Of a stretch of DNA of 44,031 nucleotides, positions 24,922 to 43,655 are shown piece by piece. The number at the start of each line of letters is the position of its first letter. The stretch's first letter is position 1. The position numbers and the translations under genes were made by a program. The notes under the pieces are model-generated. The model saw nothing but the letters and a program-made list of their open reading frames with translations. It was not told the origin of the DNA and did not search any database. The DNA is from Pseudomonadota bacterium. GTDB taxonomy: Bacteria; Desulfobacterota; WTBG01; JAGOGO01. The DNA is taken from positions 1 through 44,031 of the forward strand of contig JAZDOO010000224.1 of assembly GCA_043798555.1 (NCBI GenBank), in the 5' to 3' direction.

Positions 24922-24970
24922 CTATCTTCACCCCGGCAGAAGCAGTCATCTTCCGCCAGGCTGAAGATAG
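24922..24970 (-). promoter_or_regulatory. Intercistronic stem-loop between the UbiD and zinc-ribbon genes
   Basis: CTATCTTCA (24922-24930) pairs with TGAAGATAG (24962-24970). The stem is extended by CC/GG and GGC/GCC pairs. Confidence 0.5.
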
Positions 24971-24984
24971 TTCGAATATTAGAC

Positions 24985-28124: not shown

Positions 28125-28184
28125 GATGGTTTACCTCCTCTTGAAAAATAGAATGTTTGATCTGTTGATTGCTAAACACTCTCC

Positions 28185-28215
28185 GCAGAATTTCTATCAG
28201 TGTGAGAAATTCTGC
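28185..28215 (-). promoter_or_regulatory. Intercistronic stem-loop between the DUF1302 and DUF1329 genes
   Basis: Perfect 10-bp stem GCAGAATTTC / GAAATTCTGC with an 11-nt loop. Confidence 0.5.
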
Positions 28216-28230
28216 ATGACAAAACGCTAC

Positions 28231-29853: not shown

Positions 29854-29981
29854 AGCACTCCTCCTTCTGGCAAGTACCTTCATTAATAATGAAAAACTAT
29901 CCTTTTCTTTTTCGTTATCCCCTCCTTTCATCCGGTAATGGTAAATAAATTTCACTCTGAAACCACCTTATTCTTCCTTCC

Positions 29982-30632
29982 TTAATGGGAAGAAACTTCC
30001 TTAATGGGAAGAAACTTAATCGCTTTCATTTCTCCTTGAACTACTCCATAAAAAACGGAAATAATGATAATGTCTACCAGTTGCTCTAAAGATAGGCGCC
30101 CATCTTCCCTAAACCAACGATAGGCCCAATTTATCATTCCGAGTATCATGAAGGTTACAATTGAACATTCTTTTGTTTTAAGAAGGTCTCTTTCTCCTAT
30201 AATTTTGAGTTGATAGTAATAAAGGTTATAAATTTTCTGGTTAAGGAACGTTATTCGTTCCGCTAATTTTCCTGATAAATTGTATCCTTCTTCAATAAAA
30301 ACTTTATGTTTTTTTCTTTTCTTTATCACCAGGTAAAGGTGGCGATACACCATATTGGCAAGTTTGTCCAAAGGGTCATCCACCTGATTTATTACTGTCT
30401 CCAACGCATTAATTACTTCTAACCCACTTGATTCGATGACTTCAAAAAGGAGGTGCTCTTTGTTCTTAAAATAATAATAAATAGAAGGATTGGGTATATT
30501 AAGCCTTCCGGTGACATCTCTAATAGATGTCCTCCCATATCCGAATTCATAAAACAAGTTTGTCGCTTCTTCTATTATAGCTTCTTTTGTGTTTTTTTTA
30601 GGGCTTACTTTATTGATTGCAGCTTCTTCCAT
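29982..30632 (-). CDS. TetR/AcrR-family transcriptional regulator
   Basis: N-terminal HTH: IIEEATNLFYEFGYGRTSIRDVTGRLNIPNPSIYYYFKNKEHLL. 216 aa. Divergent from the transporter/CoA-ligase operon. Confidence 0.9.
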   Translation of the reverse strand: MEEAAINKVSPKKNTKEAIIEEATNLFYEFGYGRTSIRDVTGRLNIPNPSIYYYFKNKEHLLFEVIESSGLEVINALETVINQVDDPLDKLANMVYRHLYLVIKKRKKHKVFIEEGYNLSGKLAERITFLNQKIYNLYYYQLKIIGERDLLKTKECSIVTFMILGMINWAYRWFREDGRLSLEQLVDIIIISVFYGVVQGEMKAIKFLPIKEVSSH

Positions 30633-30737
30633 TTCCCAATTGTTCTTCTTTCAGATACAGTTCATTTTTAACACATCATACCAATCCAAAGCAAAACAAA
30701 TCAGAAATTTTTAACAAAGTATTCTCTCAAAGTTTTT

Positions 30738-30753
30738 ATTAACGTTCGCTAAA
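30738..30753. promoter_or_regulatory. Dyad-symmetric 16-mer (candidate TetR operator, tetR-proximal copy)
   Basis: ATTAACGTTCGCTAAA. Bases 30739-30753 are the exact reverse complement of 30979-30993. Internal symmetry TTTAnCGnnCGnTAAA. Confidence 0.55.
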
Positions 30754-30926
30754 ATTTATATTTTAAATTGTCGGTGTTGTCAAGAAAAAAATCACTTTTG
30801 TCAATTTTGAGTAGCTCTGGAAAATGGGAGGTAAATAATCAAAGTTTATTTTTGTGGTATCTTCGGGTTGAAATCTTTCGAATAGTTTGAGGGCTGAGAT
30901 TTTTTTTGTTACTCCACATTTAAAGC

Positions 30927-30955
30927 TTGACAAACAAAAATTGTTGTTGTTAATA
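30927..30955 (+). promoter_or_regulatory. Candidate sigma70-type promoter for the 31052-> operon
   Basis: TTGACA (30927-30932), 17-nt spacer, TTAATA (30950-30955). Overlapped by the TTGTTAATAA repeats. Confidence 0.45.
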
Positions 30956-30978
30956 ATTGTTAATAAATTGTTAATAAA
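30947..30978. repeat. Three tandem copies of TTGTTAATAA(A)
   Basis: Copies at 30947-30956, 30957-30967 and 30968-30978, preceded by TTGTTG. They lie between the putative -10 and the operator-like 16-mer. Confidence 0.8.
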
Positions 30979-30994
30979 TTTAGCGAACGTTAAA
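30979..30994. promoter_or_regulatory. Dyad-symmetric 16-mer (candidate TetR operator, operon-proximal copy)
   Basis: TTTAGCGAACGTTAAA, 58 nt upstream of the ATG at 31052. Inverted copy of 30738-30753. Confidence 0.55.
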
Positions 30995-31051
30995 TAAATC
31001 AGTCTTGCCTTTAAACCTCAATCATCTATCTTCCTATTTGGACAAAAAGTT

Positions 31052-32122
31052 ATGAGCACAAGCAATTTAAGAAACTTATTGTATTCTTTTTTCCGCTTAA
31101 GGGAGGAGTTATCTCGAAATAGTTACTTTCTCTTTATCTGCCTCAGCTTTCTTTTTTTGGGTTCGGGAGGCTGTATAAAACACTCGGTGGAAATTGAGGA
31201 AAGGACTTCGGCAATCCATTACAACGACCGGTTTTATGATATTTCGGTAGTGGATCAAAGTAACATTTGGGTTGTGGGGTTCTACGGCAAGATCATTCAT
31301 TCTAAAGACCAGGGGAAAACGTGGTCTATTCAAAAGAGCGGTACTAAAAATGCCCTCACTGGGGTCAGCTTTGCTAATCTTTCCGATGGGTGGATAACGA
31401 CGCTCACCGGAAAAATTCTCCATACTTCAGATGGGGGTGAAACGTGGCAGCTTCAGGAAAGCGGAACCGAGAATGCACTTATGGATGTGGAGTTTTTAGA
31501 TAAATCCCACGGATGGGTTGTGGGCGCTAACAATACTGTTTTAAAAACGGAGAATGGTGGAAAAGAATGGGAAACTTTTAATCCCCCTGCTGAGGTCATT
31601 GAAGATGCAACGGAAGGCATCATTGATACTGAAGAAGCAATCCTCAATGCAATCCATTTCTTAGATCTCATGAATGGTTGGGCGGTGGGAGAATATGGGA
31701 TGGTATATCGAACCAATGACGGAGGGATAACCTGGGTTAAGAAGAATGCTGGAATTACTTTTGGAGACTATCTGTTTGACGTCCATTTTGCCACCCCTGA
31801 AAAAGGTTGGATCGTTGGCATCGGCGGGAGAATCTTTAGAACCGATGACGGTGGAGAACACTGGACTCCTTTTACCTCTCCTACGGAGAACGCATTATAT
31901 ACTATCAGTTCTACCAACGGTCAGGTCTTAGCTGCAGGCACAAAAGGAACTCTGTTAATGTGCAATAGTAACGAGTGGAAACATTGTGACAGCCATTTAC
32001 CCTCCTTAAGCTGGTTTCGGAGCATCAAATTCATCAATGAAAATAGCGGATGGATTGTGGGAGGGACGGGTACCATCCTTAGGACTACTAACGGGGGAAA
32101 AGAATGGGTGGCAATGAAGTAA
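31052..32122 (+). CDS. Ycf48-like / BNR (Asp-box) beta-propeller lipoprotein
   Basis: Lipobox LGSGG/C. Six Asp-box-like repeats (SKDQGKTW, TSDGGETW, TENGGKEW, TNDGGITW, TDDGGEHW, TTNGGKEW). Confidence 0.85.
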   Translation: MSTSNLRNLLYSFFRLREELSRNSYFLFICLSFLFLGSGGCIKHSVEIEERTSAIHYNDRFYDISVVDQSNIWVVGFYGKIIHSKDQGKTWSIQKSGTKNALTGVSFANLSDGWITTLTGKILHTSDGGETWQLQESGTENALMDVEFLDKSHGWVVGANNTVLKTENGGKEWETFNPPAEVIEDATEGIIDTEEAILNAIHFLDLMNGWAVGEYGMVYRTNDGGITWVKKNAGITFGDYLFDVHFATPEKGWIVGIGGRIFRTDDGGEHWTPFTSPTENALYTISSTNGQVLAAGTKGTLLMCNSNEWKHCDSHLPSLSWFRSIKFINENSGWIVGGTGTILRTTNGGKEWVAMK

Positions 32123-32171
32123 GTCTGAAATTCAGCCAATACTAATCCTAACCACATGAATTAATACACAT

Positions 32172-34514
32172 ATGGACACGTTAAACAAAAAAATTGCCGG
32201 GTTTATTATCGGAAGGCGAAAATGGATTATTGCGGTTATGATAGTGGTAACCATTTTTTTTGGTTACCATATTAGCAGGGTGGAGATGTTCACAGAATTC
32301 TCTGACCTGCTGCCTCAGAAGCATCCTTATATTAAAATTCATAATCGTTTTCAGAAGGAATTTGGGGGGGCAAATGTCATTACCATCGCCATTGAGGTTA
32401 AAAATGGCACCATATTTAATAAGGAAACCCTGGCGAAACTGATTCGGCTAACCGACAATGTTGATTTACTCCCGGGAGTGAATCATTATCAGGTAGCATC
32501 ATTAGCGCACCGGAAGGTGCGCTACACTGAAGCTACGCCTGACGGAGGTCTGGTAGTTAAGCAGTTTCTTGAAGAAGTACCTCAAACCCAGAAGCAAATT
32601 GAGGTGCTCAAAAATTTAGTCCATACCAACGACCAGGTCTATGGAAAATTTGTCTCCTTAGATGACAAGGCTGCTCTCATCACTGCAGGATTTATCGAAG
32701 GGAGAATTGACTACAAAAATCTTTTTCTTAAGATAAAAAAGCTCCTTGATGCGGAAAAAGATGAAAACACGGAAATCTACGCCGGTGGATATCCAATGCT
32801 GGTGGGTTGGGTATACTACTATGCAGGAGAGACGTTTTTCATTTTTGGTATTACCGCACTCGTTATGATTCTGCTCCTCTTATTCTATTTTAGAAGCGTC
32901 GAAGGGGTTATCATCCCCATAATTGCTGCTATTATCAGCGGGATTTGGGGGCTGGGGTTTGTCGGAATTCTTGGGTACAACCTCGATCCTCTCGTCCTGG
33001 TCGTTCCTCTATTGATCACTGCCCGGGCCATCAGCCACTCGGTGCAGATGGTAGAGCGCTATCTGGAAGAAGTTCATGTACTTAAAAACGTTAAAGAGGC
33101 AGCCACCAAGGCCGTGGAAGAGTTATTTCTTCCTGGTATCTTAGGGATCGTCACCGATTCCGCCGGCATTTTTGTAATTGCAGTGGGCACCATCCCCCAG
33201 ATGGTGAAGTTAGCGCACTTCTGTTCTTTTTGGGCGGTGACGATCATTTTTTCAGTGTTAATCCTCACTCCGATTCTGCTTTCGTATTTTCCCGCACCGA
33301 AAAAGATTGGGCGTAAGGGCCCCACCGATGCTTTAGTATATCATGTAGCCGGATGGTCCTTTGGATACAAAAAATGGATTGCTTTGGGGGTTACTGCAGT
33401 TCTCATCACCCTTGGTTTTTACTATTCGTCGGGCATCGTGGTGGGAGACGCCCGCCCTGGGTCTCCAATCCTCTGGCCCGATAGTGAATTCAATGTTAGC
33501 GAGAAACAAATAAACAAAAATTTCCCCGGTTCAAATATTTTGATCGTGGTTTTGGAGGGAGATAAGCCCGATACCCTCAAACGGCCCGAGGTGTTGCAAA
33601 AGATGTTAGACTTCGCTCGCTACATGGAAACCAACCCTAATGTGGGAGGGTCATTGTCTTTGGTAGACATCCTTTTGGGGGTTACCCGGGTTTTTCATAA
33701 CGATGATCCCCGGTGGGCAATGATAGACCCTGACCCGATTATTGTTGGAAATTATCTTTTTCTTTATACTGCCGGAGCACCGGTGCCCAATATTTTAGGA
33801 CCTTATACCAGTTATGACTTCCGGAATGCTAATATTGCCTTTTATTATAAAGACCATAAGGGAGACACTATTCGTCAAGCCATAGCCCAGGCAAAAAAGT
33901 TCATCAACGAAAACCCCATCCAAGGAGCCCAATTTAAACTGGCAGGGGGACTCATAGGAACCGTGGCAGCAGTAAATGAGGAAATCACCTATTCTAACAA
34001 CATGACCATCCTGCTTATTTTTATTATAATTTATCTTTTTGTGGCGATAAGTTACCGTTCTTTTGTCGCCGGATTTCTTATTGTAATTCCGCTTGCTTTA
34101 GCTAATGTTCTCACTGCCGCTTACATGGCCATAAACAAGATTGGGCTCAACATCAACACCCTTCCGGTAGCATCCCTCGGGGTAGGGGTGGGAGTGGATT
34201 ACTCAATCTATATCATTGATCGCATTAAACAAGAATATCGAAGGCTTGGGAATGTGGAGAATGCAATTCATTTGGCAGTAAATACCACGGGAAAAGCGGT
34301 GAGCTTCACGGCTACGACCTTAGTGGGAGGAATCATTTTATGGTACTTCCTTTCCAACCTCAGGTTCCAGGCAGAGATGAGTATCTTACTCTCCTTATTA
34401 ATGATTATCAATATGCTGGGCGCCATGATTTTGGTCCCAGTTCTGTTTTCTATAATAAAGCCGAAGTTCATCCAACGCCTTACGAACGAGAGGGAAAAGA
34501 ATACACCCATTTAA
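32172..34514 (+). CDS. RND-superfamily (MMPL/HpnN-like) inner-membrane transporter
   Basis: 780 aa. Two-fold architecture: TM1, a large soluble loop and a 5-TM bundle, repeated twice. Genomic partner of DUF1302/DUF1329/BNR genes. Confidence 0.85.
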   Translation: MDTLNKKIAGFIIGRRKWIIAVMIVVTIFFGYHISRVEMFTEFSDLLPQKHPYIKIHNRFQKEFGGANVITIAIEVKNGTIFNKETLAKLIRLTDNVDLLPGVNHYQVASLAHRKVRYTEATPDGGLVVKQFLEEVPQTQKQIEVLKNLVHTNDQVYGKFVSLDDKAALITAGFIEGRIDYKNLFLKIKKLLDAEKDENTEIYAGGYPMLVGWVYYYAGETFFIFGITALVMILLLLFYFRSVEGVIIPIIAAIISGIWGLGFVGILGYNLDPLVLVVPLLITARAISHSVQMVERYLEEVHVLKNVKEAATKAVEELFLPGILGIVTDSAGIFVIAVGTIPQMVKLAHFCSFWAVTIIFSVLILTPILLSYFPAPKKIGRKGPTDALVYHVAGWSFGYKKWIALGVTAVLITLGFYYSSGIVVGDARPGSPILWPDSEFNVSEKQINKNFPGSNILIVVLEGDKPDTLKRPEVLQKMLDFARYMETNPNVGGSLSLVDILLGVTRVFHNDDPRWAMIDPDPIIVGNYLFLYTAGAPVPNILGPYTSYDFRNANIAFYYKDHKGDTIRQAIAQAKKFINENPIQGAQFKLAGGLIGTVAAVNEEITYSNNMTILLIFIIIYLFVAISYRSFVAGFLIVIPLALANVLTAAYMAINKIGLNINTLPVASLGVGVGVDYSIYIIDRIKQEYRRLGNVENAIHLAVNTTGKAVSFTATTLVGGIILWYFLSNLRFQAEMSILLSLLMIINMLGAMILVPVLFSIIKPKFIQRLTNEREKNTPI

Positions 34515-34600
34515 TCCCTGCTAACCGGTTCGATAGGGCGTTTTTAGTAATTGGTAATACCTGAGTGTATCCAAGATCATATGAAAGGAGAGGACTGATT

Positions 34601-35998
34601 ATGGCAAAAAAAGTCAATTCTGCAAATTTATTTGACCCCAAGATGGAAACCCTCTCTCCAGCAGAGGTCAGGGAGTATCAGTTTCAAAAAGTAAAAAACC
34701 TTATCGAATGGGTTTATGGAAAAACCGAATTTTTTCGCAACCGCTTGAAAGAAGCTAAGGTAACTCCGGATGACATCAAGACCTGGGATGATTTCCGAAA
34801 CCGGATTCCGTTCATAAGCAAAAAAGATTTAGTTAAGGATCAGGGAAAAAATCCCCCATTTGGTACCCGGCTCTGTGTTCCCCGGAAAGAATTACGAGGA
34901 ATGCATATAACCAGTGGAACTTCGGGGCAAGGTCAGGAAGTTTATGGACTCACTCAAAATGATCTTGTTTATTGTGGCCAGGGTTATGGAGCATCGCTTT
35001 ATTCCATGGGGGTTAGGAAAGGGGATTTGGTTGCTCATTTCTTTCCCATCGCTACGATGGCAGGGGGGTTAGCCTCCATCGAGGGTCTTAAAGCCATAGA
35101 AGCCCACCCCATGTTCCTTGCTTTCTTTGATACCAAAAGTAAAATCGGACACATGGTAAAATATAATCCCGAGTGCCTGTTGACCACCCCAGCCTATTTA
35201 AGTCGCATCACTGTCCTTTGCGAAGAGATGGGAATCGAACCCAGAAAGACTTTTACGAACCTGCGCATTATTACTCTCTCCACTGAAAACTTTCCCCGTC
35301 AATGGGCGGAAAAAATGCAGGAGACGTGGGGGGCGACGATTCATGATTGTTACGGGTCCTCACAGATCGGCACAAACTACGGGTACACTTGTGAACCGGG
35401 ATCTGCCTCCGAAGGAAAAGAAAGCTTTTACCATCTGGCAGAACATCTGGCGCTGGTGGAGGTCTTGAACCCGGAAACTAATGAGCCAGTCCAGTATGGA
35501 GAAGAGGGCGAACCAGTGGTTACTACTTTTAGCCGTGAGGCTTCGCCTTTGCTTCGTTTTCGGTCAAGCGATAAAGTACGCTTACTGCCTCCGGAACCTT
35601 GCGATTGTGGCCGCACTTCCCATAGATGGGAAATTGGTAACATCTCCCGCTATGACGATATGATTAAGATGAAGGGCATCAATGTCTGGCCGGCTGCTAT
35701 CAATGACGTGATCTTTTCTTACCCGGAAATTGACGAATATAATGGACGAGTTTTTATTGATACAAAAGGGGTGGAACATATCAAAATCACATTTGAGTTC
35801 AAATATTCAGTAACGGATGAAAATCTGAAAAAACATATTCTGTCGGAGCTGCCTGGGAAAATGCGGGATAAGATAGGACTGAATATCGACTTCAATGCAG
35901 TTCCTTATGGAACCATTGAGCGATTTGAATATAAAACCAGACGATGGACAGATGAGAGAAAGGAAGGACTGAAGCAAGTAAAATTTATTGAAAAGTAA
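34601..35998 (+). CDS. Phenylacetate-CoA ligase (PaaK)/F390-synthetase-family aryl/acyl-CoA ligase
   Basis: Start refined to the ATG at 34601 (AAGGAGAGG RBS). Family-typical N-terminus (ETLSPAEVREYQFQKVKNLIEWVY...FFRNRL). AMP motif TSGTSGQGQE. ~465 aa. Confidence 0.85.
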   Translation: MAKKVNSANLFDPKMETLSPAEVREYQFQKVKNLIEWVYGKTEFFRNRLKEAKVTPDDIKTWDDFRNRIPFISKKDLVKDQGKNPPFGTRLCVPRKELRGMHITSGTSGQGQEVYGLTQNDLVYCGQGYGASLYSMGVRKGDLVAHFFPIATMAGGLASIEGLKAIEAHPMFLAFFDTKSKIGHMVKYNPECLLTTPAYLSRITVLCEEMGIEPRKTFTNLRIITLSTENFPRQWAEKMQETWGATIHDCYGSSQIGTNYGYTCEPGSASEGKESFYHLAEHLALVEVLNPETNEPVQYGEEGEPVVTTFSREASPLLRFRSSDKVRLLPPEPCDCGRTSHRWEIGNISRYDDMIKMKGINVWPAAINDVIFSYPEIDEYNGRVFIDTKGVEHIKITFEFKYSVTDENLKKHILSELPGKMRDKIGLNIDFNAVPYGTIERFEYKTRRWTDERKEGLKQVKFIEK

Positions 35999-36042: not shown

Positions 36043-38340
36043 ATGGCCGAATATGCAATCATAGGCAAATCAGTGCCCAAGGTAGATGCAGTTCCAAAAG
36101 TCACTGGTGCTGCCAGATATGCCGGAGACATATTTTTACCCAGAATGCTGTGCGGGAAAATTCTAAGAAGCCCGCATCCCCATGCTCGAATCCTTAACAT
36201 CAATACCAGCAAGGCAGAAAGGTTGTTGGGGGTAAAAGCGGTTATCACCGGTAAACGCGATACCGCGGAGGTAAGATACGGGTTATTTCCCGGCACAAGG
36301 GATGAGTACGCCCTGGCTACTGATAAGGTCCGCTATGTCGGAGACGAAGTAGCCGCAGTAGCAGCTCTTGATGAAGATACGGCAGAAGAGGCTCTGGAGC
36401 TTATTGCAGTCGAGTACGAAGTGCTTCCTGCGGTCTATGATCCCATCGAGGCCATGAAAGAAGGTGCTCCACAACTTCATGATTTTAAGCCCCGAAACAA
36501 AAGTATCGTCGTTGACATAGAGCTTGGTGATGTGGAAAAAGCTTTTAAGGAATCAAATTATATCCGTGAAGATCACTTCGATACCGTAGCATTGACGCAC
36601 TGCATTCCGGAACTCTACGGAGCTATTGCCACGTGTGATCCCTCAGGCTACATTGATGTATGGGTCAATAATCAAGCCCCATTTATCAAACAAAAGGCCC
36701 TCTCCACCACCATGAGGATACCGGAACAGAAGATCAGACTGCACCGGCCTTATCTTGGTGGCGCCTTTGGGAGTCAATCCGAGATGCTGAAGGCAGAGTT
36801 TGTTGCCGCGATGCTTGCTCGCAAAACAAGGAGACCGGTGAGAGTATTTCTCACCCGGGAGGAAACAAATTCAGGGAGTGCCCGGCAGAAGCATCCTTAT
36901 CATATGGACATTAAGACCGGTGTTAAGAAGGATGGAACCATAAAGGTAATCTCCATTAACAGTATCAATGACGGCGGGGCTTACATCAGTATTGGAGCGA
37001 TCACCAATGTCTGTGGAACAATTTGTACCTTAGGTATGTATCCCAGGATAGAGGCCTATAAATACCATTGCGACCGGGTCTGTACCAATAAACCCCCGAA
37101 AGGTGCCATGCGCGGCAACGGAGGGCAGCAGATCCAGTTTGCAGTGGAAAGCCAGGTTGATTTAATCGCCCGGGATCTGGGAATTGATCCGATAGAAATG
37201 AGAGCAAAAAATGCAGCTCGTACCGGAGACGTAAATCCCCATAAGGGTGTGATAAATAGCAGTGCCTTTCCTGATACCATCAGAGAAGCCGCAAAGGCAG
37301 CAGGGTGGAAACAAAAAGTTGGGAAACTCCCGCCTTATAAGGGTATCGGAGTGGGATGTGCCACTTATTTTCATTCCTTTGATTATGGATACCGTACTGC
37401 GTCGGCTGCCTTTATTAAGTTTAATGAGGAAGGAGAGATCACCATATTCAGTGGCAACGTGGATAATGGGATGGGGAATGAGACCATGCTTTGTGCGATT
37501 GCTGCCGAAGAACTCGGGGCCCGTTTAGAAAACATACGGTTAGTGAATGGCGATACCTTACTTACCCCCAACGACCCTGGAACTCATACGATGTCTGCGA
37601 CTACCACCAGCGGAATGGCGATGAAGGTAGCGGCTACGGATGCTAAACGTCAGCTTTTTGAGGTTGCCGCTGAGGTATTAAAAGCTGATCCGGAACGTCT
37701 GGAATCGAAAGAGGGAAAAATTTTTATCAAGGGACGCCCGGATAAAACAATTTCTTTCCGTGATGCCATCAGGGCTGGCCTTTTAAAAGGACAGGTGGTT
37801 TTGGGAAAAGGTCATTTTCAACCTCACCTCGATCCTCTTGATTGGTACGGCGGTGGGATTATGGGTCAGATGGTGGGCGGCTATAGCTATGCAACGACTA
37901 TCGCTGAAGTTGAAATTGATAGAGACACAGGGCAGATAAAGGTGCCTAAGCTTACCGTGGCTTATGATTGTGGTAAGCCTCTTAACCCGCAGATTGTCCA
38001 TGGACTGATTCACGGATCAACAATGTTCTGTTTAGGACAGGCAATGTACGAAGAAATCTATTTAGACAAAGGGCAGGTAATGAACCCTACTTATTTAGAT
38101 TATACCCTTCCTACTTCATTACAGATGCCGGTGATCGAATCAATTATTGTGAAGTCCGAGCATCCTGATGGTCCTTTTGGCGCAAAAGGGCTCGATGCTT
38201 CGGTCCACTCCGTGAACGCTGCTATTGCTAATGCGGTCCACGATGCTATCGGGGTGAGGATTAAAGAGGTTCCCATAACGGCAGAAAAAGTTCTCAAGGC
38301 ATTAGAAGAAAAAGAGAAAAAAGGCGCTCATCGAAAGTGA
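36043..38340 (+). CDS. Xanthine-oxidase-family molybdopterin subunit (4-hydroxybenzoyl-CoA reductase alpha-like)
   Basis: 765 aa. N-terminal a/b-hammerhead signature GKSVPKVDAVPKVTGAARYAGD. Followed by the FAD and 2Fe-2S subunits. Confidence 0.9.
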   Translation: MAEYAIIGKSVPKVDAVPKVTGAARYAGDIFLPRMLCGKILRSPHPHARILNINTSKAERLLGVKAVITGKRDTAEVRYGLFPGTRDEYALATDKVRYVGDEVAAVAALDEDTAEEALELIAVEYEVLPAVYDPIEAMKEGAPQLHDFKPRNKSIVVDIELGDVEKAFKESNYIREDHFDTVALTHCIPELYGAIATCDPSGYIDVWVNNQAPFIKQKALSTTMRIPEQKIRLHRPYLGGAFGSQSEMLKAEFVAAMLARKTRRPVRVFLTREETNSGSARQKHPYHMDIKTGVKKDGTIKVISINSINDGGAYISIGAITNVCGTICTLGMYPRIEAYKYHCDRVCTNKPPKGAMRGNGGQQIQFAVESQVDLIARDLGIDPIEMRAKNAARTGDVNPHKGVINSSAFPDTIREAAKAAGWKQKVGKLPPYKGIGVGCATYFHSFDYGYRTASAAFIKFNEEGEITIFSGNVDNGMGNETMLCAIAAEELGARLENIRLVNGDTLLTPNDPGTHTMSATTTSGMAMKVAATDAKRQLFEVAAEVLKADPERLESKEGKIFIKGRPDKTISFRDAIRAGLLKGQVVLGKGHFQPHLDPLDWYGGGIMGQMVGGYSYATTIAEVEIDRDTGQIKVPKLTVAYDCGKPLNPQIVHGLIHGSTMFCLGQAMYEEIYLDKGQVMNPTYLDYTLPTSLQMPVIESIIVKSEHPDGPFGAKGLDASVHSVNAAIANAVHDAIGVRIKEVPITAEKVLKALEEKEKKGAHRK

Positions 38341-38361
38341 AATGTTTAAAAGGAGAGGACA

Positions 38362-40767
38362 ATGCGTTTACCAAAGTTTGACTATTTAGCCCCAAAGACC
38401 AGAGAGGAGTTATCGTCTTTGCTCTTGAAATACAAGGATGGGGCCAAGATTTTGGGAGGAGGAACAGAACTGCTCGTTTCCATGAAACAGAACATACTCA
38501 CTCCCCGGTACGTGATAAACCTTAAAACCGTTTCCGGGTTAGACTACATAACAAGTAACCATGAGGGAGGAATGAGCATCGGGGCCTTAACTACCCTCAA
38601 CAGGATTGAAGAGTCGCCGGAAGTAAAGAGCACTTTCCCGGTTTTAGCTCAGGCTGCTGGCAGTGTCGCCTCTCCTCATATCCGGCAGATGGCAACCATC
38701 GGAGGTAATATATGTTTAGATGCACGTTGTGGGTATTACAATCAGTCCAAGGAATGGAGAAAGGTACGGGAGACCTGTCTCAAGCAGGGAGGTACTGTTT
38801 GCCATGCAGTTAATAGTCTCTGTGAAAGTGCATGTCCAATCCATATGGATGTTTCCGGATATATAGCCCTCATTGCCGAAGGTCGTATTGAAGAGGCCCT
38901 GGAGATCATCAGGGATACTAATCCGTTGGCCGGAATTTGTGGCCGGGTCTGTCATCATCCCTGTGAAACTGTTTGCCGACGGGGAGAGCTGGATGCACCA
39001 ATAGCTATTGCTGCCCTGAAAAGATTTGCTGTGGACTATGGAGCAAAAAAAGGAATACAAACCCCCATTCGTAAAGCAACGCCAAAAGGAATTAAGGTAG
39101 CCATTGTGGGGTCTGGTCCTGGTGGGTTAACCGCCGCTTATCATCTTGCTCGATGGGGTTATGAGGTCACCGTGTTTGAAGCACTCCCCGTTGCTGGGGG
39201 AGCAATCGCCTGGGGAATTCCAGAGTACCGTCTCCCTCGAGAAATATTACAGGCAGATATTCAGTTTATCACTGATCTTGGAGTAGAAATCAAAACCAAC
39301 AGCCCCGTGGGGAAAGATGGAATTTCCTTCAAGAGCCTGACCAGGCAAGGTTATAAAGCACTCTTTCTCGACACCGGTGCCGGGGAAGGCTATGAGCTTC
39401 CCATCCAAGGCACCACCTTAAAAAATGTCTTAAAAGGGGTTGAGTTTCTTAAGAGATTAAATTTTAAGGAAAAAATAACGGTTGGCAAAATGACTGTCGT
39501 TATTGGGGGAGGCAATGTGGCCATTGATGTGGCCAAGTGTGCCTTACGGCTCGGAGCAAAAGAAGTTCAGCTTGCCTGCCTTGAATCTCGAGATGAAATG
39601 CCTGCCATCCCGGAAGAAATAGAAGAGGCTGAGGTTTTAGGGGTAAAGCTCCATTGCGGCTGGGGCCCGATAAGGATTATAGAAGGAAACGGTGCCGCCC
39701 GAGGGGTTGAGTTACAAAAGTGTATCTCGGTATTTGATCGCGACTGGAAGTTTAATCCTGCGTATGATGAGAACGTGAGAATGATCTTAGATGCGGATAC
39801 GGTCATTATTGCCGTTGGCCAGGTCCCTGATCTTTCCTTTTTGGAAGGATCCGGGGTGAAGATCAGTGGGAACAAAATTCCGGTAGATTCCGTTACCTTG
39901 GCTACCAATAAGCCAGGAATATTTGCCGGCGGGGATGTGGTTACCGGACCTGGAAAAATAGTCGGAGCCATGAGCGCGGGTTTGAATGCTGCTATATCCA
40001 TAGATAACTACCTTCAAGGAAAAGAGCTTTATCAGGACAGAACGCTTCCATCATTTAAAAAAACGCTCATATGCCGTTCCAGTGAAGAAAAAGGGTTTTC
40101 GCGGCAAGAGATGCCTTCCCTCCCATTGGCAGAAAGGCTAAAGGGGTTTAAAGAGGTTAATTTGGGATTCACTTCGGAGATGGCCCAAAAAGAAGCCTCC
40201 CGATGCTTGAACTGTGGGGCGGATGAGTGTGCTGCCATATTTTCAGCAGATACAGTTCCCGCTCTCATCGCCTTGGGCGCTAATGTAAAAATAGTAAAAG
40301 CCGGCGACGAGAACATTATTCCTCTGGAGGCATTTTACACCGGGGAAGGGAAGAAGGTTAATATTCTTACCTCAGATGAATTTATCACTGAAATTCAAAT
40401 CCCTGCACTTCCACCGCATAGTGGAGGAGTATACTTAAAACATTCGGTAAGAAATGTAATTGATTTTCCTCTTCTGGGAGTTGCAACCGTCATCACCCTA
40501 AGTAATAAGAGTGTCTGTAAAGAACTAAAGATAGTGGTCTGCGGAGCCAGTTCTGCACCGTTTAGGGCAACAGAAGCAGAAAACCTCCTTAAAGGGAAAA
40601 AAGCGAATGAAAAGATTATTCAGGAAGCTGCTCAGGAAGCTGCTGCCAAGGCGAGGATCATATCTACCGGAGGAAGGGCAGTAAGCCTGAATTACCGAAA
40701 AAAAATAATCATGGGATTGGTAAATAAATCAATACATCAAGCCTGGAAACAGGCCCTATCGAATTAA
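38362..40767 (+). CDS. Chimeric FAD subunit: CoxM/HcrB-like FAD-binding subunit with a GltD/NfnB-like NAD(P)H:flavin FeS module nested in its [4Fe-4S] loop
   Basis: aa 1-150 are CoxM-type (ILGGGTELL...ATIGGNICLDARCGYYNQSKEWRKVRETCLKQGGTVCHAV). aa ~151-622 are GltD-like (CESACP..., GICGRVCHHPCETVC, VAIVGSGPGGLTAAYHL, VVIGGGNVAIDVA, IFAGGDVV, ...RCLNCGADE). aa 623-801 resume CoxM-type sequence (CAAIFSADTVPALIALGA...VIDFPLLGVA...) and the C-terminal domain. Confidence 0.85.
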   Translation: MRLPKFDYLAPKTREELSSLLLKYKDGAKILGGGTELLVSMKQNILTPRYVINLKTVSGLDYITSNHEGGMSIGALTTLNRIEESPEVKSTFPVLAQAAGSVASPHIRQMATIGGNICLDARCGYYNQSKEWRKVRETCLKQGGTVCHAVNSLCESACPIHMDVSGYIALIAEGRIEEALEIIRDTNPLAGICGRVCHHPCETVCRRGELDAPIAIAALKRFAVDYGAKKGIQTPIRKATPKGIKVAIVGSGPGGLTAAYHLARWGYEVTVFEALPVAGGAIAWGIPEYRLPREILQADIQFITDLGVEIKTNSPVGKDGISFKSLTRQGYKALFLDTGAGEGYELPIQGTTLKNVLKGVEFLKRLNFKEKITVGKMTVVIGGGNVAIDVAKCALRLGAKEVQLACLESRDEMPAIPEEIEEAEVLGVKLHCGWGPIRIIEGNGAARGVELQKCISVFDRDWKFNPAYDENVRMILDADTVIIAVGQVPDLSFLEGSGVKISGNKIPVDSVTLATNKPGIFAGGDVVTGPGKIVGAMSAGLNAAISIDNYLQGKELYQDRTLPSFKKTLICRSSEEKGFSRQEMPSLPLAERLKGFKEVNLGFTSEMAQKEASRCLNCGADECAAIFSADTVPALIALGANVKIVKAGDENIIPLEAFYTGEGKKVNILTSDEFITEIQIPALPPHSGGVYLKHSVRNVIDFPLLGVATVITLSNKSVCKELKIVVCGASSAPFRATEAENLLKGKKANEKIIQEAAQEAAAKARIISTGGRAVSLNYRKKIIMGLVNKSIHQAWKQALSN

Positions 40768-40829
40768 CCACCGCTAAACAAAAACGCCAAAGTGATAGCT
40801 TGGATGTAAGCTCTTAGGGGGATTGTAAA

Positions 40830-41285
40830 ATGAAGCAGACGATGAATTTCAAAGTAAACGGAGAACACTATGAGTTGTTAGTAGATACCCGCAGCACCCT
40901 CCTGGAGGTTTTGAGGGAAGAAATTGGTCTCACCGGCACCAAGGAAGGTTGTAGTCTGGGGGCATGCGGGACCTGTACGGTCATATTAGATGGTAAGCCT
41001 GTACTTTCCTGTTTAGTTTTAGCTGTTGATGCCGAAGGCAAGGAAGTTCTCACGATCGAGGGACTCGCCCAGGGCGATACCCTCCACCCGATCCAAAAAG
41101 CTTTTGTTGAGCATGGAGCCATCCAGTGCGGATATTGCACTCCGGGGATGGTAATGTCCGCCAAGGCATTATTGGATCAAAACCCTAAGCCAGGCTATGA
41201 GGAAATTAAAAAAGCCATTTCAGGAAACATCTGCCGTTGCACTGGCTATACGAAAATTATAGAAGCTATTCAGTCGGTAAAATAA
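40830..41285 (+). CDS. Xanthine-oxidase-family [2Fe-2S] small subunit
   Basis: 151 aa. GCSLGACGTCTV (plant-type cluster) plus QCGYCTPG...CRCTGY (second cluster). Confidence 0.92.
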   Translation: MKQTMNFKVNGEHYELLVDTRSTLLEVLREEIGLTGTKEGCSLGACGTCTVILDGKPVLSCLVLAVDAEGKEVLTIEGLAQGDTLHPIQKAFVEHGAIQCGYCTPGMVMSAKALLDQNPKPGYEEIKKAISGNICRCTGYTKIIEAIQSVK

Positions 41286-41339: not shown

Positions 41340-42482
41340 ATGGCATTAGATTGGATACCACGAGCTCCCAAGAATGAAAAACGACACTTTCACTTTGGCG
41401 ATGAAAAATATCTGGGGACAGAGCCACCCTGTACCATGTATGAAAAGAAGCCATTACTTGATCCTGATGGAAATATATCCGAAGGTCTGTACGTGGCCTG
41501 GATCACCCTCAATAACCCCGCTCAATTCAATTCATATACTTCAGAGATGGTCAAAGGGACAGCAGTTGCTTTTGATAAAGCCGCCAATGATGACAGTGTT
41601 GTAGCAGTTATTTTTACCGGGGCAGGAGATAAAGCCTTTTGTACTGGTGGTAATGTGGAGGAGTATACAAAATACTATGCCCACAGACCACAAGACTGCC
41701 ATCACTATATGACACCCTACTGGCATCTTTTCGAAAGTGTCTGGAATTCTGCCAAACCTTTTATCCGCCGGGCCAATGGAATAAGTATTGGAGGTGGTGA
41801 AGAAATCGGAGGGGTCTGTGACTTAACCATAGCTTCCGACCTGGCTACTTTTGGACAGGTGGGACCCCAGCATGGTTCAGTGCCCATGGGAGGTGCCTGC
41901 CAATTCAAACCAATGGAAATGACCATCCAGGATGCAATGTGGAACTCTATATCGTGTGAACAATGGAGTGCCTACACAATGTATCGAAAAAATTATATTC
42001 ATCAGGTAGTCCCCGTGCTTAAGAAAGATGGTACGTTCATCCGGAACCCCTTGGTCATCACTGATAAGTACGTGGAGGACGGAGAAATTGTATACGGAGA
42101 ATTTAAGACTGGTGCCGAGGCAAAAAAGGCAAAGGAGTTGGTTGATACCTTGCCCCGCGATCTTTCGCTCTTAGATAAAGCGTGCACGGATGTGGCCTGG
42201 AGGTTTGCCAATTTATTTCCTGGATGTGTTGGCTTAGCCTTAGCCATGGTTCGATCAGTCAAAAAGTTGGCCTACGACCGGACCAGAGGAGAGCTACCCT
42301 GGTGGTTTGCGGCAAATGCAGGCTGCTTTGGGGAGTACGACATGGGCATGAGTTCTTTCTTTACCCGGAAAATAACCGGAAAGGGAAACATTGATATTTT
42401 ACAATACCGTCGAATGTTAGCTGAGGGACACCCCGTAGACGAGGAATTGTTTGAAGCAGTTATGCCCAAACCGAAGAAGTAG
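41340..42482 (+). CDS. Crotonase-superfamily ring-opening hydrolase, BamA/Oah-like (6-oxocyclohex-1-ene-1-carbonyl-CoA hydrolase family)
   Basis: 380 aa, long for a crotonase and matching Oah/BamA. LNNPAQFNSYTSEMV corresponds to the ...QYNSYTT... block targeted by bamA marker primers. FTGAGDKAFCTGGN and a GGGEEIG oxyanion region. Confidence 0.72.
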   Translation: MALDWIPRAPKNEKRHFHFGDEKYLGTEPPCTMYEKKPLLDPDGNISEGLYVAWITLNNPAQFNSYTSEMVKGTAVAFDKAANDDSVVAVIFTGAGDKAFCTGGNVEEYTKYYAHRPQDCHHYMTPYWHLFESVWNSAKPFIRRANGISIGGGEEIGGVCDLTIASDLATFGQVGPQHGSVPMGGACQFKPMEMTIQDAMWNSISCEQWSAYTMYRKNYIHQVVPVLKKDGTFIRNPLVITDKYVEDGEIVYGEFKTGAEAKKAKELVDTLPRDLSLLDKACTDVAWRFANLFPGCVGLALAMVRSVKKLAYDRTRGELPWWFAANAGCFGEYDMGMSSFFTRKITGKGNIDILQYRRMLAEGHPVDEELFEAVMPKPKK

Positions 42483-42491
42483 GAGAACGTC

Positions 42492-43655
42492 ATGAACTTT
42501 GATCTCACTGAAGAACAGCTAATGATGCGACAATTAGCCCGGGATTTTGCTCTGAAAGAAATTAAACCCGTAGTGGATAAGGATGAAGCCAGCCACCGCT
42601 TTCAGAGCGAATTGGTTAAAAAAATGGGAGAGCTGGGATTTTTCGGGTGTATCATTCCTGAAGAGTATGGAGGGTCAAACACTGGATTTGTTACCCATGC
42701 TCTCATTACCGAAGAAATTGCCCGGGTAAGCGGTTCTCTTCGGGCACCATTTAATGCGCAGGCAATGGGCACTGCTCGGGAAATTTTTCAATACGGGAAC
42801 GAGGAGCAGAGAAAAAAGTATATCCCCAGGTTGGTGAGTGCGGAATGGCTGGGGTGTATCTGTATCACTGAGCCGAATGCTGGTTCCGATGTAGCCTCAA
42901 TGCGAACCAAAGCCGTAAGGCATGGAGATCACTATCTCATAAACGGCTCGAAGAACTGGATCACTTATGGAGAGGTAGCGGACATAGGAATTGTTTATGC
43001 CTATACCGACCAGGAGAAAAAACACAACGGTATTTCCGCCTTCATTGTTGATATGCATTCCGCCGGCATCTCTACTGCGTCAATGGGAGAAAAAATGGGC
43101 TGGAATGCCTGTCCCACCAGCGAAGTTTTTTTCGAAGAAGTAAAGGTTCCCGGGGAGAATTTAATGGGTAACGCAGGAGAAGGCTTTAAATATTGCATGG
43201 GGGGATTGGATAATACCAGATTATCAGCCGCGGCTGGTGCCGTGGGGGTTGCACAGGGACTGCTGGACGAAAGCATCAGGTACGCCACCGAACGGGAACA
43301 ATTTGGTAAACCCATTGCTCAATTCCAGATGGTTCAGGAGGTGATTGCCCGGATGGCAACCGATATTGATGCTGCCCGGCTTCTCACCTATCGTTGTGCA
43401 TACTTAAAAGACAAAGGAGTACCTTCTACGGTGGAGACCTCCATGGCAAAACTATTTTCTTGCGAGGTAGCATCCAGGGTGAGTGATTTAGCCCTCCAAG
43501 TTTTGGGCGCCTACGGATATTCACGGGAATATCCGGTAGAACGTTACCTGCGGGATGCAAAACTGTATCAGTTGTTAGAAGGTTCAGTCAACATCCAGAA
43601 AGTAATCATTGCCGGAGATGTCCTTGGAATCCGCCCAACGAAAAAGAAAAACTAA
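42492..43655 (+). CDS. Acyl-CoA dehydrogenase
   Basis: 387 aa. N-terminal MNFDLTEEQLMMRQLARDFA. TEPNAGSD. C-terminal YQLLEGSVNIQ (catalytic Glu region). Confidence 0.92.
   Translation: MNFDLTEEQLMMRQLARDFALKEIKPVVDKDEASHRFQSELVKKMGELGFFGCIIPEEYGGSNTGFVTHALITEEIARVSGSLRAPFNAQAMGTAREIFQYGNEEQRKKYIPRLVSAEWLGCICITEPNAGSDVASMRTKAVRHGDHYLINGSKNWITYGEVADIGIVYAYTDQEKKHNGISAFIVDMHSAGISTASMGEKMGWNACPTSEVFFEEVKVPGENLMGNAGEGFKYCMGGLDNTRLSAAAGAVGVAQGLLDESIRYATEREQFGKPIAQFQMVQEVIARMATDIDAARLLTYRCAYLKDKGVPSTVETSMAKLFSCEVASRVSDLALQVLGAYGYSREYPVERYLRDAKLYQLLEGSVNIQKVIIAGDVLGIRPTKKKN

Follow-up and report, generated by a model that had tools for sequence, protein, structure and literature searches.

A GltD-like pyridine-nucleotide module nested in the [4Fe-4S] loop of an HcrB/CoxM-type FAD subunit

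Introduction

4-Hydroxybenzoyl-CoA reductase of Thauera aromatica (HcrABC; PDB 1RM6/1SB3), an enzyme of anaerobic aromatic degradation, is composed of a molybdenum-containing alpha subunit, an FAD-containing beta subunit and a gamma subunit with two [2Fe-2S] clusters. Work by Unciuleac et al. from 2004, whose title, as cited in PMC11760930, contains the phrase "inverted electron flow", reportedly placed the entry of ferredoxin electrons at the [4Fe-4S] cluster of the FAD subunit, and Boll's work reportedly assigned very low potentials to this cluster and to the Mo(V/IV) couple. Other xanthine-oxidase-family molybdenum enzymes also act in the reductive direction, with activities that depend on NAD(P)H or are stimulated by it: XdhD-YgfM of Escherichia coli converts uric acid to 2,8-dioxopurine (PMC12507026), and UcdCFO of Enterocloster converts urolithin C to urolithin A (PMC11760930).

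Pyridine nucleotides are handled by a different fold in GltD and in NfnB/NfnL of NfnAB (NfnSL; 5JCA, 4YLF), which carries FAD, a nicotinamide site and two [4Fe-4S] clusters. In NfnB, R201 is hydrogen bonded to the flavin N5, and a YRR motif binds the 2'-phosphate of NADPH (PMC7596348). DsrL-1 proteins of the GltD family lack YRR and were NAD(H) specific in assays; in DsrL, an NAD-type site goes with the oxidative direction, NAD+ being the better acceptor in vivo (PMC7596348). StnC (8OH5) and NfnA of the Bfu-type NfnABC complexes (9BOV, 9N5U) contain a module of this fold in which a C-x3-CP motif is followed by the Rossmann folds and then by EA-x-RC-x2-C. Its FAD is an NADPH port at the end of the chain and is explicitly nonbifurcating (PMC11829005, PMC10482914); R239 of StnC, the equivalent of NfnB R201, does not form the hydrogen bond to N5 (PMC10482914). 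The hosts of these modules are NuoG/Fdh-like, with NuoE/F-like bifurcating partners, and in StnC the module is itself nested, between residues 1 to 101 and the rest of the NuoG-like domain (PMC10482914).

Here, we describe a GltD-like module that is nested in a CoxM/HcrB-type FAD subunit. No paper describing such a fusion was found, in line with an earlier note on this DNA that knew of no characterized enzyme of this kind; the architecture is not unique, however, but common to a large uncharacterized family.

Results and Discussion

Nested architecture of the beta subunit

The analyzed stretch of DNA (44,031 nucleotides, here called the window) contains an intact open reading frame (ORF) preceded by a strong ribosome binding site (AAGGAG, 7 nt 5' of the ORF). 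It encodes an HcrB/CoxM-type FAD subunit in which a 472-aa GltD-like module lies exactly between Cys ligands 3 and 4 of the HcrB-type [4Fe-4S] loop. All of the following features lie on the plus strand.

38362..40767, +: beta subunit with nested GltD-like module, 801 aa (Pfam, NCBIfam, PDB alignment, conservation, AF2)
38362..38811, +: host N-part, aa 1-150, with the N-terminal half of FAD_binding_5 and ligands C123, C139 and C147 (Pfam 5-121; HcrB 28-149)
38713..38802, +: host [4Fe-4S] loop, C118/C123/C139/C147
38812..40227, +: insert, aa 151-622, a StnC/NfnA-type GltD-like cassette with predicted FAD, NAD(H) site and two [4Fe-4S] clusters (PRK12771 149-623)
38809..39054, +: Fer4_20 region, aa 150-231, with predicted proximal ligands C158, C197, C201 and K220 and predicted distal ligands C154 and C205 (Pfam, alignment)
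39094..39147, +: FAD dinucleotide-binding motif of the insert, VAIVGSGPGGLTAAYHL, aa 245-262 (Pyr_redox_2, NAD_binding_8)
39490..39585, +: nicotinamide-nucleotide Rossmann motif, aa 377-408, running from VVIGGGNVAIDVA (aa 379-391) to ACLE (conservation, motif comparison)
40108..40230, +: cassette C-terminal element, aa 583-623, with predicted distal ligands C615 and C618 and with C623 as ligand 4 of the host cluster (NfnI-L 10-49)
40228..40767, +: host C-part, aa 623-801, with the remaining FAD_binding_5 and CO_deh_flav_C (CO_deh_flav_C 692-793; XdhB models 619-798; HcrB 155-322)

The Pfam scan returned FAD_binding_5 (5-121), Fer4_20 (150-231), Pyr_redox_2 (245-540), a second stretch of FAD_binding_5 and CO_deh_flav_C (692-793), the order that the earlier note had predicted. 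Both domains of the FAD subunit scored above the Pfam thresholds (PF00941, 139 bits with a cut-off of 27; PF03450, 54 bits with a cut-off of 25.5), and those of the module reached 99.9 (PF14691, Fer4_20) and 107.5 bits (PF07992, Pyr_redox_2). The NCBIfam models for HcrB (TIGR03195) and XdhB each matched in two stretches flanking a PRK12771-type module (149-623); the HcrB score of 214 bits over both stretches was below the equivalog cut-off of 404.55. When residues 158-619 were removed, the excised host aligned to crystallized T. aromatica HcrB (1rm6_B) as one stretch covering residues 28-322 of 324, with HcrB Cys122/138/146/155 in register with query Cys123/139/147/623 ("adeC" ending in C623 was placed on "sdrC155"). 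The insert thus takes the place of the linker from the third to the fourth ligand, as the earlier note had proposed, except that this linker has 8 residues in HcrB and not 6. The architecture is thus nested and not end to end.

The same alignment weakened another claim, that the loop defines 4-hydroxybenzoyl-CoA reductases: the excised host also aligned through the loop with PaoB (5g5g_B), which binds a [4Fe-4S] cluster there, and with 5y6q_B, where two of the four ligand Cys were kept in the alignment shown.

Across 45 nested proteins (35-86% identity), 12 loop and cluster Cys residues were invariant, as were the GxGxxG and host FAD motifs. The invariant positions include G33, G34, T112, G115, N116, C118, C123, C139 and C147 of the host N-part as well as C623, so that all four host-cluster Cys are conserved; in the insert, they include C154, C158, C197, C201, C205, C615 and C618, then A247, G250, G252, P253 and G255 of the FAD motif and G382, G383, G384, A387 and D389 of the nicotinamide motif. 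The AF2 model of the 801-aa protein (pLDDT 82.7) was confident for both host parts and low only at the Cys loops, which were modelled without cofactors. Its Foldseek matches were mostly to the insert.

Type of cassette and predicted nucleotide specificity

Residues 153-620 were collinear with residues 103-568 of 9bov_A, 8oh5_C and 9n5u_A (344 bits), and the same three chains were the top Foldseek matches of the insert, making StnC and Bfu-type NfnA its closest relatives in sequence and fold. NfnB and GltD share the fold at a greater distance (5jca_L, TMt 0.81 and 39% identity; range for NfnB/NfnL and GltD, TMt 0.77-0.81 and 36-39% identity). The flavin, nicotinamide and Fe-S motifs named in the earlier note were found at their positions and are retained: C154-x3-C158-P159 opens the cassette, followed by GICGRVCHHPCETVC (aa 191-205), VAIVGSGPGGLTAAYHL (aa 246-262) and IFAGGDVV (aa 520-527), and C615-x2-C618-x4-C623, then AAIFSADTVPAL, closes it. 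In the alignment with 5jca_L, query 583-622 corresponded to chain residues 10-49 and query 154-552 to 52-471. The EA-x-RC-x2-C element, N-terminal in NfnB and GltD, is thus C-terminal in the insert, and the split that the earlier note had read as a circular permutation or a sharing of cysteines is real with respect to NfnB. The permuted order is nevertheless a trait inherited with the StnC/PRK12771-type cassette and not made by the present insertion, and sharing is not needed, since 11 invariant Cys plus Lys220 suffice as ligands for three separate clusters. Both termini of the cassette end at the distal [4Fe-4S] cluster, which allows it to be spliced into a loop.

By alignment offset, C158/C197/C201/K220 correspond to Cys108/147/151/Lys170, the ligands of the A7 cluster in Csac NfnA (PMC11829005). 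K220 aligned with StnC K170 and with the proximal-cluster Glu of Pf NfnI-L, and Lys was present at this position in 5/5 sequences of the window clade. The insert is of the StnC/NfnA(Bfu) type and would, by analogy, act as a nonbifurcating pyridine-nucleotide port. The designation "NfnB-like, potentially bifurcating" could not be upheld, given this collinearity, Lys instead of Glu at position 220 and the lack of an NfnA-like or ferredoxin gene nearby.

The insert differs from StnC and NfnA in its acceptor, a Mo-enzyme chain, and in its nucleotide site. C406-L407-E408 stands where the NADPH-binding YRR, absent here unlike in NfnB, would be; YRR was present in 40 of the 46 nearest free modules. 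This replacement predicts specificity for NADH and not NADPH, so the site proposed earlier for "NAD(P)H" is kept but probably serves only the first of the two.

Operon and proposed function

The beta gene is part of an operon whose other members are listed below.

34565..35998, +: PaaK-family aryl/arylacetate-CoA ligase, at the start of the operon (Pfam AMP-binding and AMP-binding_C_2; NCBIfam PaaK 183-192 bits, below cut-off)
36043..38340, +: HcrA-like molybdopterin-binding alpha subunit (Pfam Ald_Xan_dh_C, MoCoBD_1, MoCoBD_2)
40830..41285, +: gamma subunit with two [2Fe-2S] clusters (Pfam Fer2 and Fer2_2; TIGR03193 183 bits, below the cut-off of 257.8)
41340..42482, +: Oah/BamA-like homologue of the ring-cleaving 6-oxocyclohex-1-ene-1-carbonyl-CoA hydrolase (TIGR03200 408 bits, cut-off 464, model 11-360 of 360)
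42492..43655, +: acyl-CoA dehydrogenase (Pfam Acyl-CoA_dh_N, _M and _1)

The best PDB match of the alpha subunit was HcrA over its full length (1rm6_A, 493 bits; next match, 280), which by far was also its best NCBIfam match (TIGR03194, 692 bits, below the cut-off of 994.55). All three subunits scored below the HcrABC equivalog cut-offs, and the substrate may therefore not be 4-hydroxybenzoyl-CoA. The alpha and gamma subunits were 73% and 75% identical to the partners of an un-inserted beta subunit (locus L006), whose genes have the alpha-beta-gamma order of the window, a difference from Thauera. The position of the CoA ligase is conserved in two related loci (L004 and L005), and a UbiD-family (de)carboxylase is encoded about 9 kb upstream. 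The window ORFs (16-44 kb) included no NfnA-like, NuoE/F-like or ferredoxin gene, although a partner gene could lie outside them.

The best explanation, which we hold with somewhat more than even confidence, is an HcrABC-like reductase with a built-in nonbifurcating NADH entry port that dehydroxylates a 4-hydroxybenzoyl-CoA-like substrate. The bacterium is an uncultured, strictly anaerobic member of the Thermodesulfobacteriota, and genes 36043-41285 would encode an HcrABC-like xanthine-oxidase-family Mo enzyme whose beta subunit acquired a self-contained pyridine-nucleotide:iron-sulfur oxidoreductase cassette. By analogy, electrons would pass from NADH to the insert FAD, the proximal [4Fe-4S] (C158, C197, C201, K220), the distal [4Fe-4S] (C154, C205, C615, C618) and the host [4Fe-4S] (C123, C139, C147, C623), and then via the host FAD and the two [2Fe-2S] clusters of gamma to the Mo cofactor of alpha and the substrate. 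We infer the NADH specificity, the direction of electron flow, the substrate and the cluster-to-cluster distances; the evidence is consistent with the earlier proposal of a pyridine-nucleotide module wired into a [4Fe-4S]-FAD-2x[2Fe-2S]-Mo chain. An aryl-CoA resembling 4-hydroxybenzoyl-CoA would be supplied by the adjoining CoA ligase and be reductively dehydroxylated, and the product would enter a benzoyl-CoA-type pathway. The module would stand in, as a simple electron port, for the soluble low-potential ferredoxin of the Thauera enzyme, and NADH in place of ferredoxin would then probably power this step of aromatic degradation in a strict anaerobe.

This explanation is supported by the match to HcrA, by the ligase, hydrolase, dehydrogenase and (de)carboxylase genes, by the lack of neighbouring ferredoxin or NfnA-like genes and by the precedent of NAD(P)H-driven reductive dehydroxylation in XdhD-YgfM (PMC12507026) and UcdCFO (PMC11760930). 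These two enzymes differ, however, in having ordinary FAD subunits without a GltD-like insert, UcdC also lacking the [4Fe-4S] loop, and NAD(P)H presumably acts on their host FAD. Against the explanation, the ligase is PaaK type and not benzoate-CoA-ligase type. With potentials as low as those reported for Thauera, NADH electrons would moreover move partly uphill, unless the potentials are retuned or energy is coupled.

In the opposite, oxidative direction, an aryl-CoA or heteroaryl substrate would be hydroxylated with water and the insert would serve as an exit port to NAD+. Most members of the xanthine oxidase family are hydroxylases, and CoxM/HcrB-type FAD subunits presumably lack an intrinsic NAD site, which an added module would supply. 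The CLE site parallels DsrL-1, where such sites mark oxidation (PMC7596348), a correlation that also speaks against the reductase. The subthreshold HcrA score and a second nested family with generic XdhA-like alpha subunits in nonaromatic contexts (see below) point the same way. We nevertheless consider oxidation unlikely: the reductase HcrA is the closest characterized relative of alpha by a wide margin, the low-potential-type [4Fe-4S] loop, the hallmark of "inverted electron flow", is retained, and the upstream ligase with the downstream BamA-like hydrolase and acyl-CoA dehydrogenase fits a benzoyl-CoA-type funnel in a strict anaerobe.

An energy-coupled enzyme, working by flavin-based bifurcation or confurcation, could take two forms. 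Strongly exergonic dehydroxylation with NADH might drive ferredoxin reduction, the host [4Fe-4S] still being the ferredoxin port, or NADH and reduced ferredoxin might donate jointly, with the branch point at one or the other FAD. The fold is that which bifurcates in NfnB, and R290, the equivalent of NfnB R201, is invariant; StnC, however, keeps this Arg as R239 without the N5 hydrogen bond (PMC10482914). Two flavins per subunit are common in bifurcating systems, the host cluster lies where the insert chain meets the host FAD and perhaps the surface of the protein, a three-way position at which the Thauera enzyme reportedly takes up ferredoxin electrons, and the separately evolved nested family has the NfnB-type Glu ligand in 40 of 40 sequences. 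The predicted chain is linear, however, and the window lacks the partner genes named above, which makes energy coupling quite improbable.

Occurrence and origin of the nested architecture

Four homologues of 801 aa each (70-86% identity) were found in other assemblies (ENA, JGI, Logan) with an identical junction layout; the two that were looked up both lay in TetR-Ycf48like-MMPL-ligase-alpha-beta-gamma synteny. More than 40 further nested proteins came from many phyla, with NaphS2 and Sporobacter termitidis as sources whose genomes are those of isolates. The junctions showed no break in GC content or composition, and the junction residues were invariant in the 45 sequences. Although the window comes from just one metagenomic contig and the exact protein has no record elsewhere, an artefact (a chimeric assembly, a frameshift joining separate genes or an end-to-end fusion misread as nesting) has a negligible chance in view of these homologues, their junctions and a host that flanks the insert on both sides and aligns to a single HcrB chain. 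These data confirm that the fusion is real; the misassembly that the earlier note had wished to exclude found no support.

The architecture recurs in a second, larger and uncharacterized nested family from Dehalococcoidia, Anaerolineae, Desulfobacteraceae, NaphS2 and Sporobacter. The beta subunits of this second family (about 785-800 aa, e.g., P0113 of NaphS2, L012 of S. termitidis and Dehalococcoidia/Anaerolineae metagenome-assembled genomes) carry the module at the same loop position, with all cluster Cys, a CLE/SLE-type nucleotide site and adjoining genes for the Mo and 2Fe-2S subunits. Comparison of the two families showed that the window family gained its insert independently, a result on which host and insert trees, alpha and gamma partners, junctions and the Lys/Glu ligand agree. 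The window host was 32-41% identical to hosts of the second family but 40-56% identical to HcrB-like proteins without an insert. All nested hosts formed one clade in 0/100 bootstraps, and all nested inserts in 0/60. The alpha subunits of the second family were only 30-31% identical to that of the window, and its gene order is gamma-alpha-beta. The N-junction has about 24 residues there versus 6 in the window clade, and the C-junction reads C-x2-C-x-C versus C-x2-C-x4-C.

A GltD-like module is nested in the FAD subunit

The gene for the FAD (beta) subunit (38362-40767, forward strand) was found to be uninterrupted; it encodes 801 aa and has AAGGAG 7 nt ahead of its ATG. All motifs quoted for this protein in an earlier, sequence-only note were located where they had been placed. 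A domain HMM scan suggested there returned the Pfam domains in the nested order that had been predicted:

aa 5-121 plus a second stretch, FAD_binding_5
aa 150-231, Fer4_20
aa 245-540, Pyr_redox_2
aa 692-793, CO_deh_flav_C

The NCBIfam models for HcrB (TIGR03195) and XdhB each matched in two stretches around a PRK12771-type module (149-623). After excision of residues 158-619, the protein aligned in a single stretch to Thauera aromatica HcrB (1rm6_B, 28-322 of 324) in a PDB search, with Cys123, Cys139, Cys147 and Cys623 at the positions of HcrB Cys122, Cys138, Cys146 and Cys155. With these cysteines in register, a 472-aa module stands in place of an 8-residue HcrB linker. The insertion point proposed before, between the last two cysteines of the [4Fe-4S] loop, thus held for the third and fourth ligands, while the linker had to be corrected from 6 to 8 residues. 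An AF2 model of the subunit, computed on a 45-protein alignment, reached a mean pLDDT of 82.7 and a pTM of 0.68, and low confidence was confined to the cofactor-less Cys loops (120-151 and 618-627) and a linker (563-576). When this model was submitted to Foldseek, the top 50 matches were all to the larger insert. From alignment and model confidence, the two host parts probably form one contiguous HcrB-type fold.

Four homologues of 801 aa (70-86% identity; together with the window protein, the window clade) were retrieved, each from a different assembly (ENA, JGI or Logan). The arrangement of TetR, Ycf48-like, MMPL, CoA ligase, alpha, beta and gamma genes was kept in both homologue loci looked up, and the GC content was continuous across the junctions (host N-part, 0.476; insert, 0.480; alpha, 0.477). 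The nested beta subunit is not an artefact. PaoB (5g5g_B) and 5y6q_B also aligned over the host loop region, with 5y6q_B retaining two of the four ligand cysteines in the printed alignment. PaoB binds a [4Fe-4S] cluster at the matching loop position, and the loop is therefore not exclusive to 4-hydroxybenzoyl-CoA reductase (4-HBCR), which it had been taken to define.

The same loop was probably invaded twice

A search for further proteins with the nested architecture, as the earlier note had advised, yielded a large second family: many proteins of ~785-800 aa in the database matches listed have the Pfam set of the window beta and 35-41% identity to it. Dehalococcoidia, Anaerolineae, KSB1, Desulfobacteraceae, Myxococcota, Actinomycetota, Clostridia and Bacteroidales were represented among the matches listed. 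Since the isolates NaphS2 (locus L001) and Sporobacter termitidis DSM 10068 (L012) belong to this family, it is experimentally accessible. The window clade was absent from the best 80 of >573 confirmed relatives among GTDB species representatives. Genes for the Mo and 2Fe-2S subunits always adjoin the second-family beta, in the order gamma-alpha-beta and in non-aromatic contexts, and the alpha subunits of L001-L003 and L012 are generic and XdhA-like.

Table. Comparison of the two nested lineages. Host and insert trees were built by neighbor joining (NJ) on sequence sets picked by similarity to the query.
Host identity, window clade to un-inserted ~333-aa HcrB-like proteins: 40-56%
Host identity, window clade to second family: 32-41%
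All nested hosts monophyletic: NJ bootstrap 0/100
Second family excluding the window clade, host tree: NJ bootstrap 100/100
Insert identity, window clade to NuoF-fused free modules: 52-55%
Insert identity, window clade to second family: 37-44%
All nested inserts monophyletic: NJ bootstrap 0/60
N-junction length: window clade, 6 residues; second family, ~24 residues
C-junction motif: window clade, C-x2-C-x4-C; second family, C-x2-C-x-C
Residue at position 220: window clade, Lys (5/5); second family, Glu of the NfnB type (40/40)

The window alpha and gamma subunits are 73% and 75% identical, respectively, to those of a locus with an un-inserted beta and alpha-beta-gamma order (L006); identity to second-family subunits is 30-31% for alpha and 49% for gamma. 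The bootstrap values of the host and insert trees, these partner identities and the junction differences ruled out a single origin of all nested betas; together with position 220, they indicate that the same host loop was taken independently by GltD cassettes twice. Such double use of one loop for a permuted GltD cassette would represent modular, convergent engineering of a redox chain by domain insertion, and the Lys-type and Glu-type lineages would serve as a natural experiment for asking what renders the fold bifurcating or nonbifurcating.

Two irregular members of the nested set were noted. On a ~2-Mb Dehalococcoidia-like contig (L002, 7626-9990), the alpha gene beside the nested beta is divided into three ORFs, reflecting a pseudogene or assembly/sequencing errors. 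A 904-aa protein from JGI (P0054) carries an extra C-terminal PF08369 domain, i.e., a further modular elaboration.

Type and origin of the inserted cassette

Insert residues 153-620 are collinear with residues 103-568 of Caldicellulosiruptor NfnA (9bov_A, 344 bits) and with Sporomusa StnC (8oh5_C), and the N-terminal 400 residues of the insert match Thermococcus NfnA (9n5u_A). These three chains were also the top Foldseek matches of the insert, with a TMt of 0.81 for classical NfnB. Against the NfnB chain 5jca_L, the order is swapped: residues 583-622 match chain residues 10-49, and residues 154-552 match 52-471. The circular permutation suspected previously is therefore real relative to NfnB; however, it is already present in the StnC/NfnA/PRK12771-type cassette and was not made by the insertion. 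The GltD domain of StnC (aa 102-565) is itself nested in a NuoG-like domain (PMC10482914). StnC and NfnA of the Bfu-type bifurcating complexes have the permuted cassette in common with the window insert, also in nested form, but the host there is NuoG-like. The cassette FAD of these complexes lies at one end of the electron chain, where it serves as an NADPH port and does not bifurcate (PMC11829005, PMC10482914).

In a segment-wise comparison, residues 154-370 and 501-620 of the insert were closest to NuoF-fused YRR/Lys-type modules, and the nicotinamide subdomain (371-500) was closest to CLES-type modules (proteins P0085, P0099 and P0097). Because of the latter segment, NuoF-fused YRR-type modules could be accepted as direct donors in part only. 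The pattern points either to a poorly sampled or unsampled donor lineage of Lys type and CLES type or to a mosaic insert.

Predicted cofactor sites

Conservation was assessed across 45 aligned nested proteins with 35-86% identity. Invariant in 45/45 were C118, C123, C139, C147, C154, C158, C197, C201, C205, C615, C618 and C623; the host FAD motif residues G33, G34, T112, G115 and N116 were likewise invariant, as were the two dinucleotide motifs in the insert (G250/G252/G255; G382-G384/D389), and conservation of C193 was not seen in this alignment. The proximal cluster of StnC/NfnA-type cassettes is bound by Cys108, Cys147, Cys151 and Lys170, the last being Glu in bifurcating NfnB (PMC11829005). 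With an offset of 50, these ligands align to C158, C197, C201 and K220 of the window protein. E202, initially a candidate for the non-Cys ligand, was superseded by position 220 after mapping on the NfnA/StnC and NfnI-L alignments. The remaining invariant cysteines C154, C205, C615 and C618 fit the distal cluster, which leaves C623, aligned to HcrB C155, for the host cluster; C118 is the counterpart of HcrB C117, a non-ligand. Three [4Fe-4S] clusters are thus predicted to be supplied by 11 Cys and Lys220 with none shared, which argues against the sharing of cysteines between host loop and insert considered in the earlier note.

Cys454 (39721-39723), in an RCxSVFD-like motif of the nicotinamide subdomain, was also invariant in 45/45 and has no predicted role as a cluster ligand.

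The insert is predicted to use NADH

NfnB binds NADPH through Y310-R311-R312, which contact its 2'-phosphate, and assays showed NAD(H) specificity for DsrL-1 proteins of the GltD family that have no YRR (PMC7596348). At the YRR position, the window beta has C406-L407-E408 (39577-39585). CLE was found in 5/5 members of the window clade, and CLE or SLE was found in 39/40 second-family members, including those of L001-L003; among the 46 free-standing GltD modules closest in sequence, 40 had the NADPH-type YRR. By parallel with DsrL-1, the replacement of YRR by CLE predicts that the window enzyme uses NADH, not NADPH. The proposal of an NAD(P)H-oxidizing insert is in line with the invariant nicotinamide motif but would be narrowed to NADH. 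The occurrence of C/S-L-E in both nested lineages suggests that cassettes linked to Mo enzymes came under convergent selection for NAD(H).

Function of the nested enzyme

Within the xanthine oxidase family, 4-HBCR is the textbook case of "inverted" electron flow, and it depends on low-potential ferredoxin. Strict anaerobes have no cheap low-potential reductant with which to feed such enzymes. The window alpha matched HcrA best, both in NCBIfam and in the PDB (493 bits versus 280 for the next match), and alpha, beta and gamma all scored under the HcrABC equivalog cut-offs. The operon comprises the following genes:

first gene, PaaK-family CoA ligase
36043-38340, forward, HcrA-like Mo subunit (alpha)
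38362-40767, forward, nested FAD subunit (beta)
40830-41285, forward, 2x[2Fe-2S] subunit (gamma)
after gamma, Oah/BamA-like hydrolase (408 bits versus a cut-off of 464)
after the hydrolase, acyl-CoA dehydrogenase

The best reading is an NADH-dependent, nonbifurcating 4-HBCR-like aryl-CoA dehydroxylase, for which we infer the substrate and the direction of electron flow from sequence. Electrons would pass from NADH via the insert FAD to the proximal and then the distal [4Fe-4S] cluster, and from there through the host [4Fe-4S] cluster, the host FAD and the 2x[2Fe-2S] clusters to Mo; the predicted complex would hold 2 FAD, 3 [4Fe-4S], 2 [2Fe-2S] and Mo per alpha-beta-gamma unit. Against this path, the Thauera 4-HBCR reportedly has very low potentials, and NADH lies above them. 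NAD(P)H-linked reductive chemistry is known in the same enzyme family from XdhD-YgfM (PMC12507026) and UcdCFO (PMC11760930), both without the insert. An NAD+-reducing hydroxylase is a less likely rival reading. YgfK, considered as a precedent for a GltD-like donor on a separate subunit (TIGR03315, 277 bits), was discarded, as it is a DPD-like substrate reductase and not the donor of XdhD (PMC12507026).

An energy-coupled enzyme, either bifurcating or confurcating, is slightly less likely still. Bifurcating NfnB has Glu at the proximal-cluster ligand position where the window insert has K220, and no ferredoxin, NfnA-like or NuoE/F-like genes were found in the window. In the bifurcating form, which we regard as the least probable, the energy drop of NADH-driven aryl dehydroxylation would reduce ferredoxin via one of the two flavins and a three-way junction at the host [4Fe-4S] cluster. 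If true, this would constitute a new class of bifurcating enzymes on the molybdenum hydroxylase scaffold, with the loop colonized by cassettes of two kinds, Lys-type in one event and Glu-type (NfnB-like) in the other.

As an NADH-dependent dehydroxylase, the enzyme with its hard-wired NADH-oxidizing flavin/Fe-S module would offer a concrete answer to electron supply in anaerobic aromatic degradation. No description of the fusion was found in the openly accessible full-text literature, and database annotations of the nested proteins are generic (e.g., "FAD-dependent oxidoreductase") or, for JGI, a composite name. The individual parts and the catalytic scaffold were all known before; new are their wiring, the convergent insertion at one loop in two lineages and the switch of electron donor that this implies, and a large unstudied Mo-enzyme family with nested architecture is brought to light.

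Genomic neighborhood

By its Lon protease, the source bacterium groups with uncultured Thermodesulfobacteriota. The genes preceding the operon include the following:

16996-18855, reverse, tungsten/molybdenum enzyme, a true aldehyde:ferredoxin oxidoreductase (AOR)
19022-26595, reverse, two CrtI/phytoene-desaturase-like flavoproteins, two SDRs and a UbiD-family (de)carboxylase
26889-28124, reverse, DUF1329 protein
28231-29955, reverse, DUF1302 protein
29982-30632, reverse, TetR regulator
31052-32122, forward, Ycf48/BNR-like protein
32172-34514, forward, MMPL/RND transporter

The AOR-family gene was rejected as BamB of a class II benzoyl-CoA reductase, its product scoring 421 bits with 1aor versus 209 bits with 4z3w. 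With the model for phenylphosphate carboxylase alpha, the UbiD-family protein scored 272 bits, under the cut-off of 565; the genes at 19022-26595 may share an aromatic or phenolic pathway with the Mo-enzyme operon. Those at 26889-34514 form a putative envelope transport set immediately upstream of this operon. TetR, Ycf48-like and MMPL genes are kept with the operon in one window-clade locus (L004), as are the Ycf48-like and MMPL genes in the other (L005), whose contig begins there.

At the start of the window, a tRNA-His/Arg/Lys cluster (11-240) and tRNA-Leu (10169-10250) flank several ORFs without a family match and two tyrosine-recombinase genes (3044-3730 and 8676-9824, both reverse); this tRNA-bracketed region may be an integrated mobile element.
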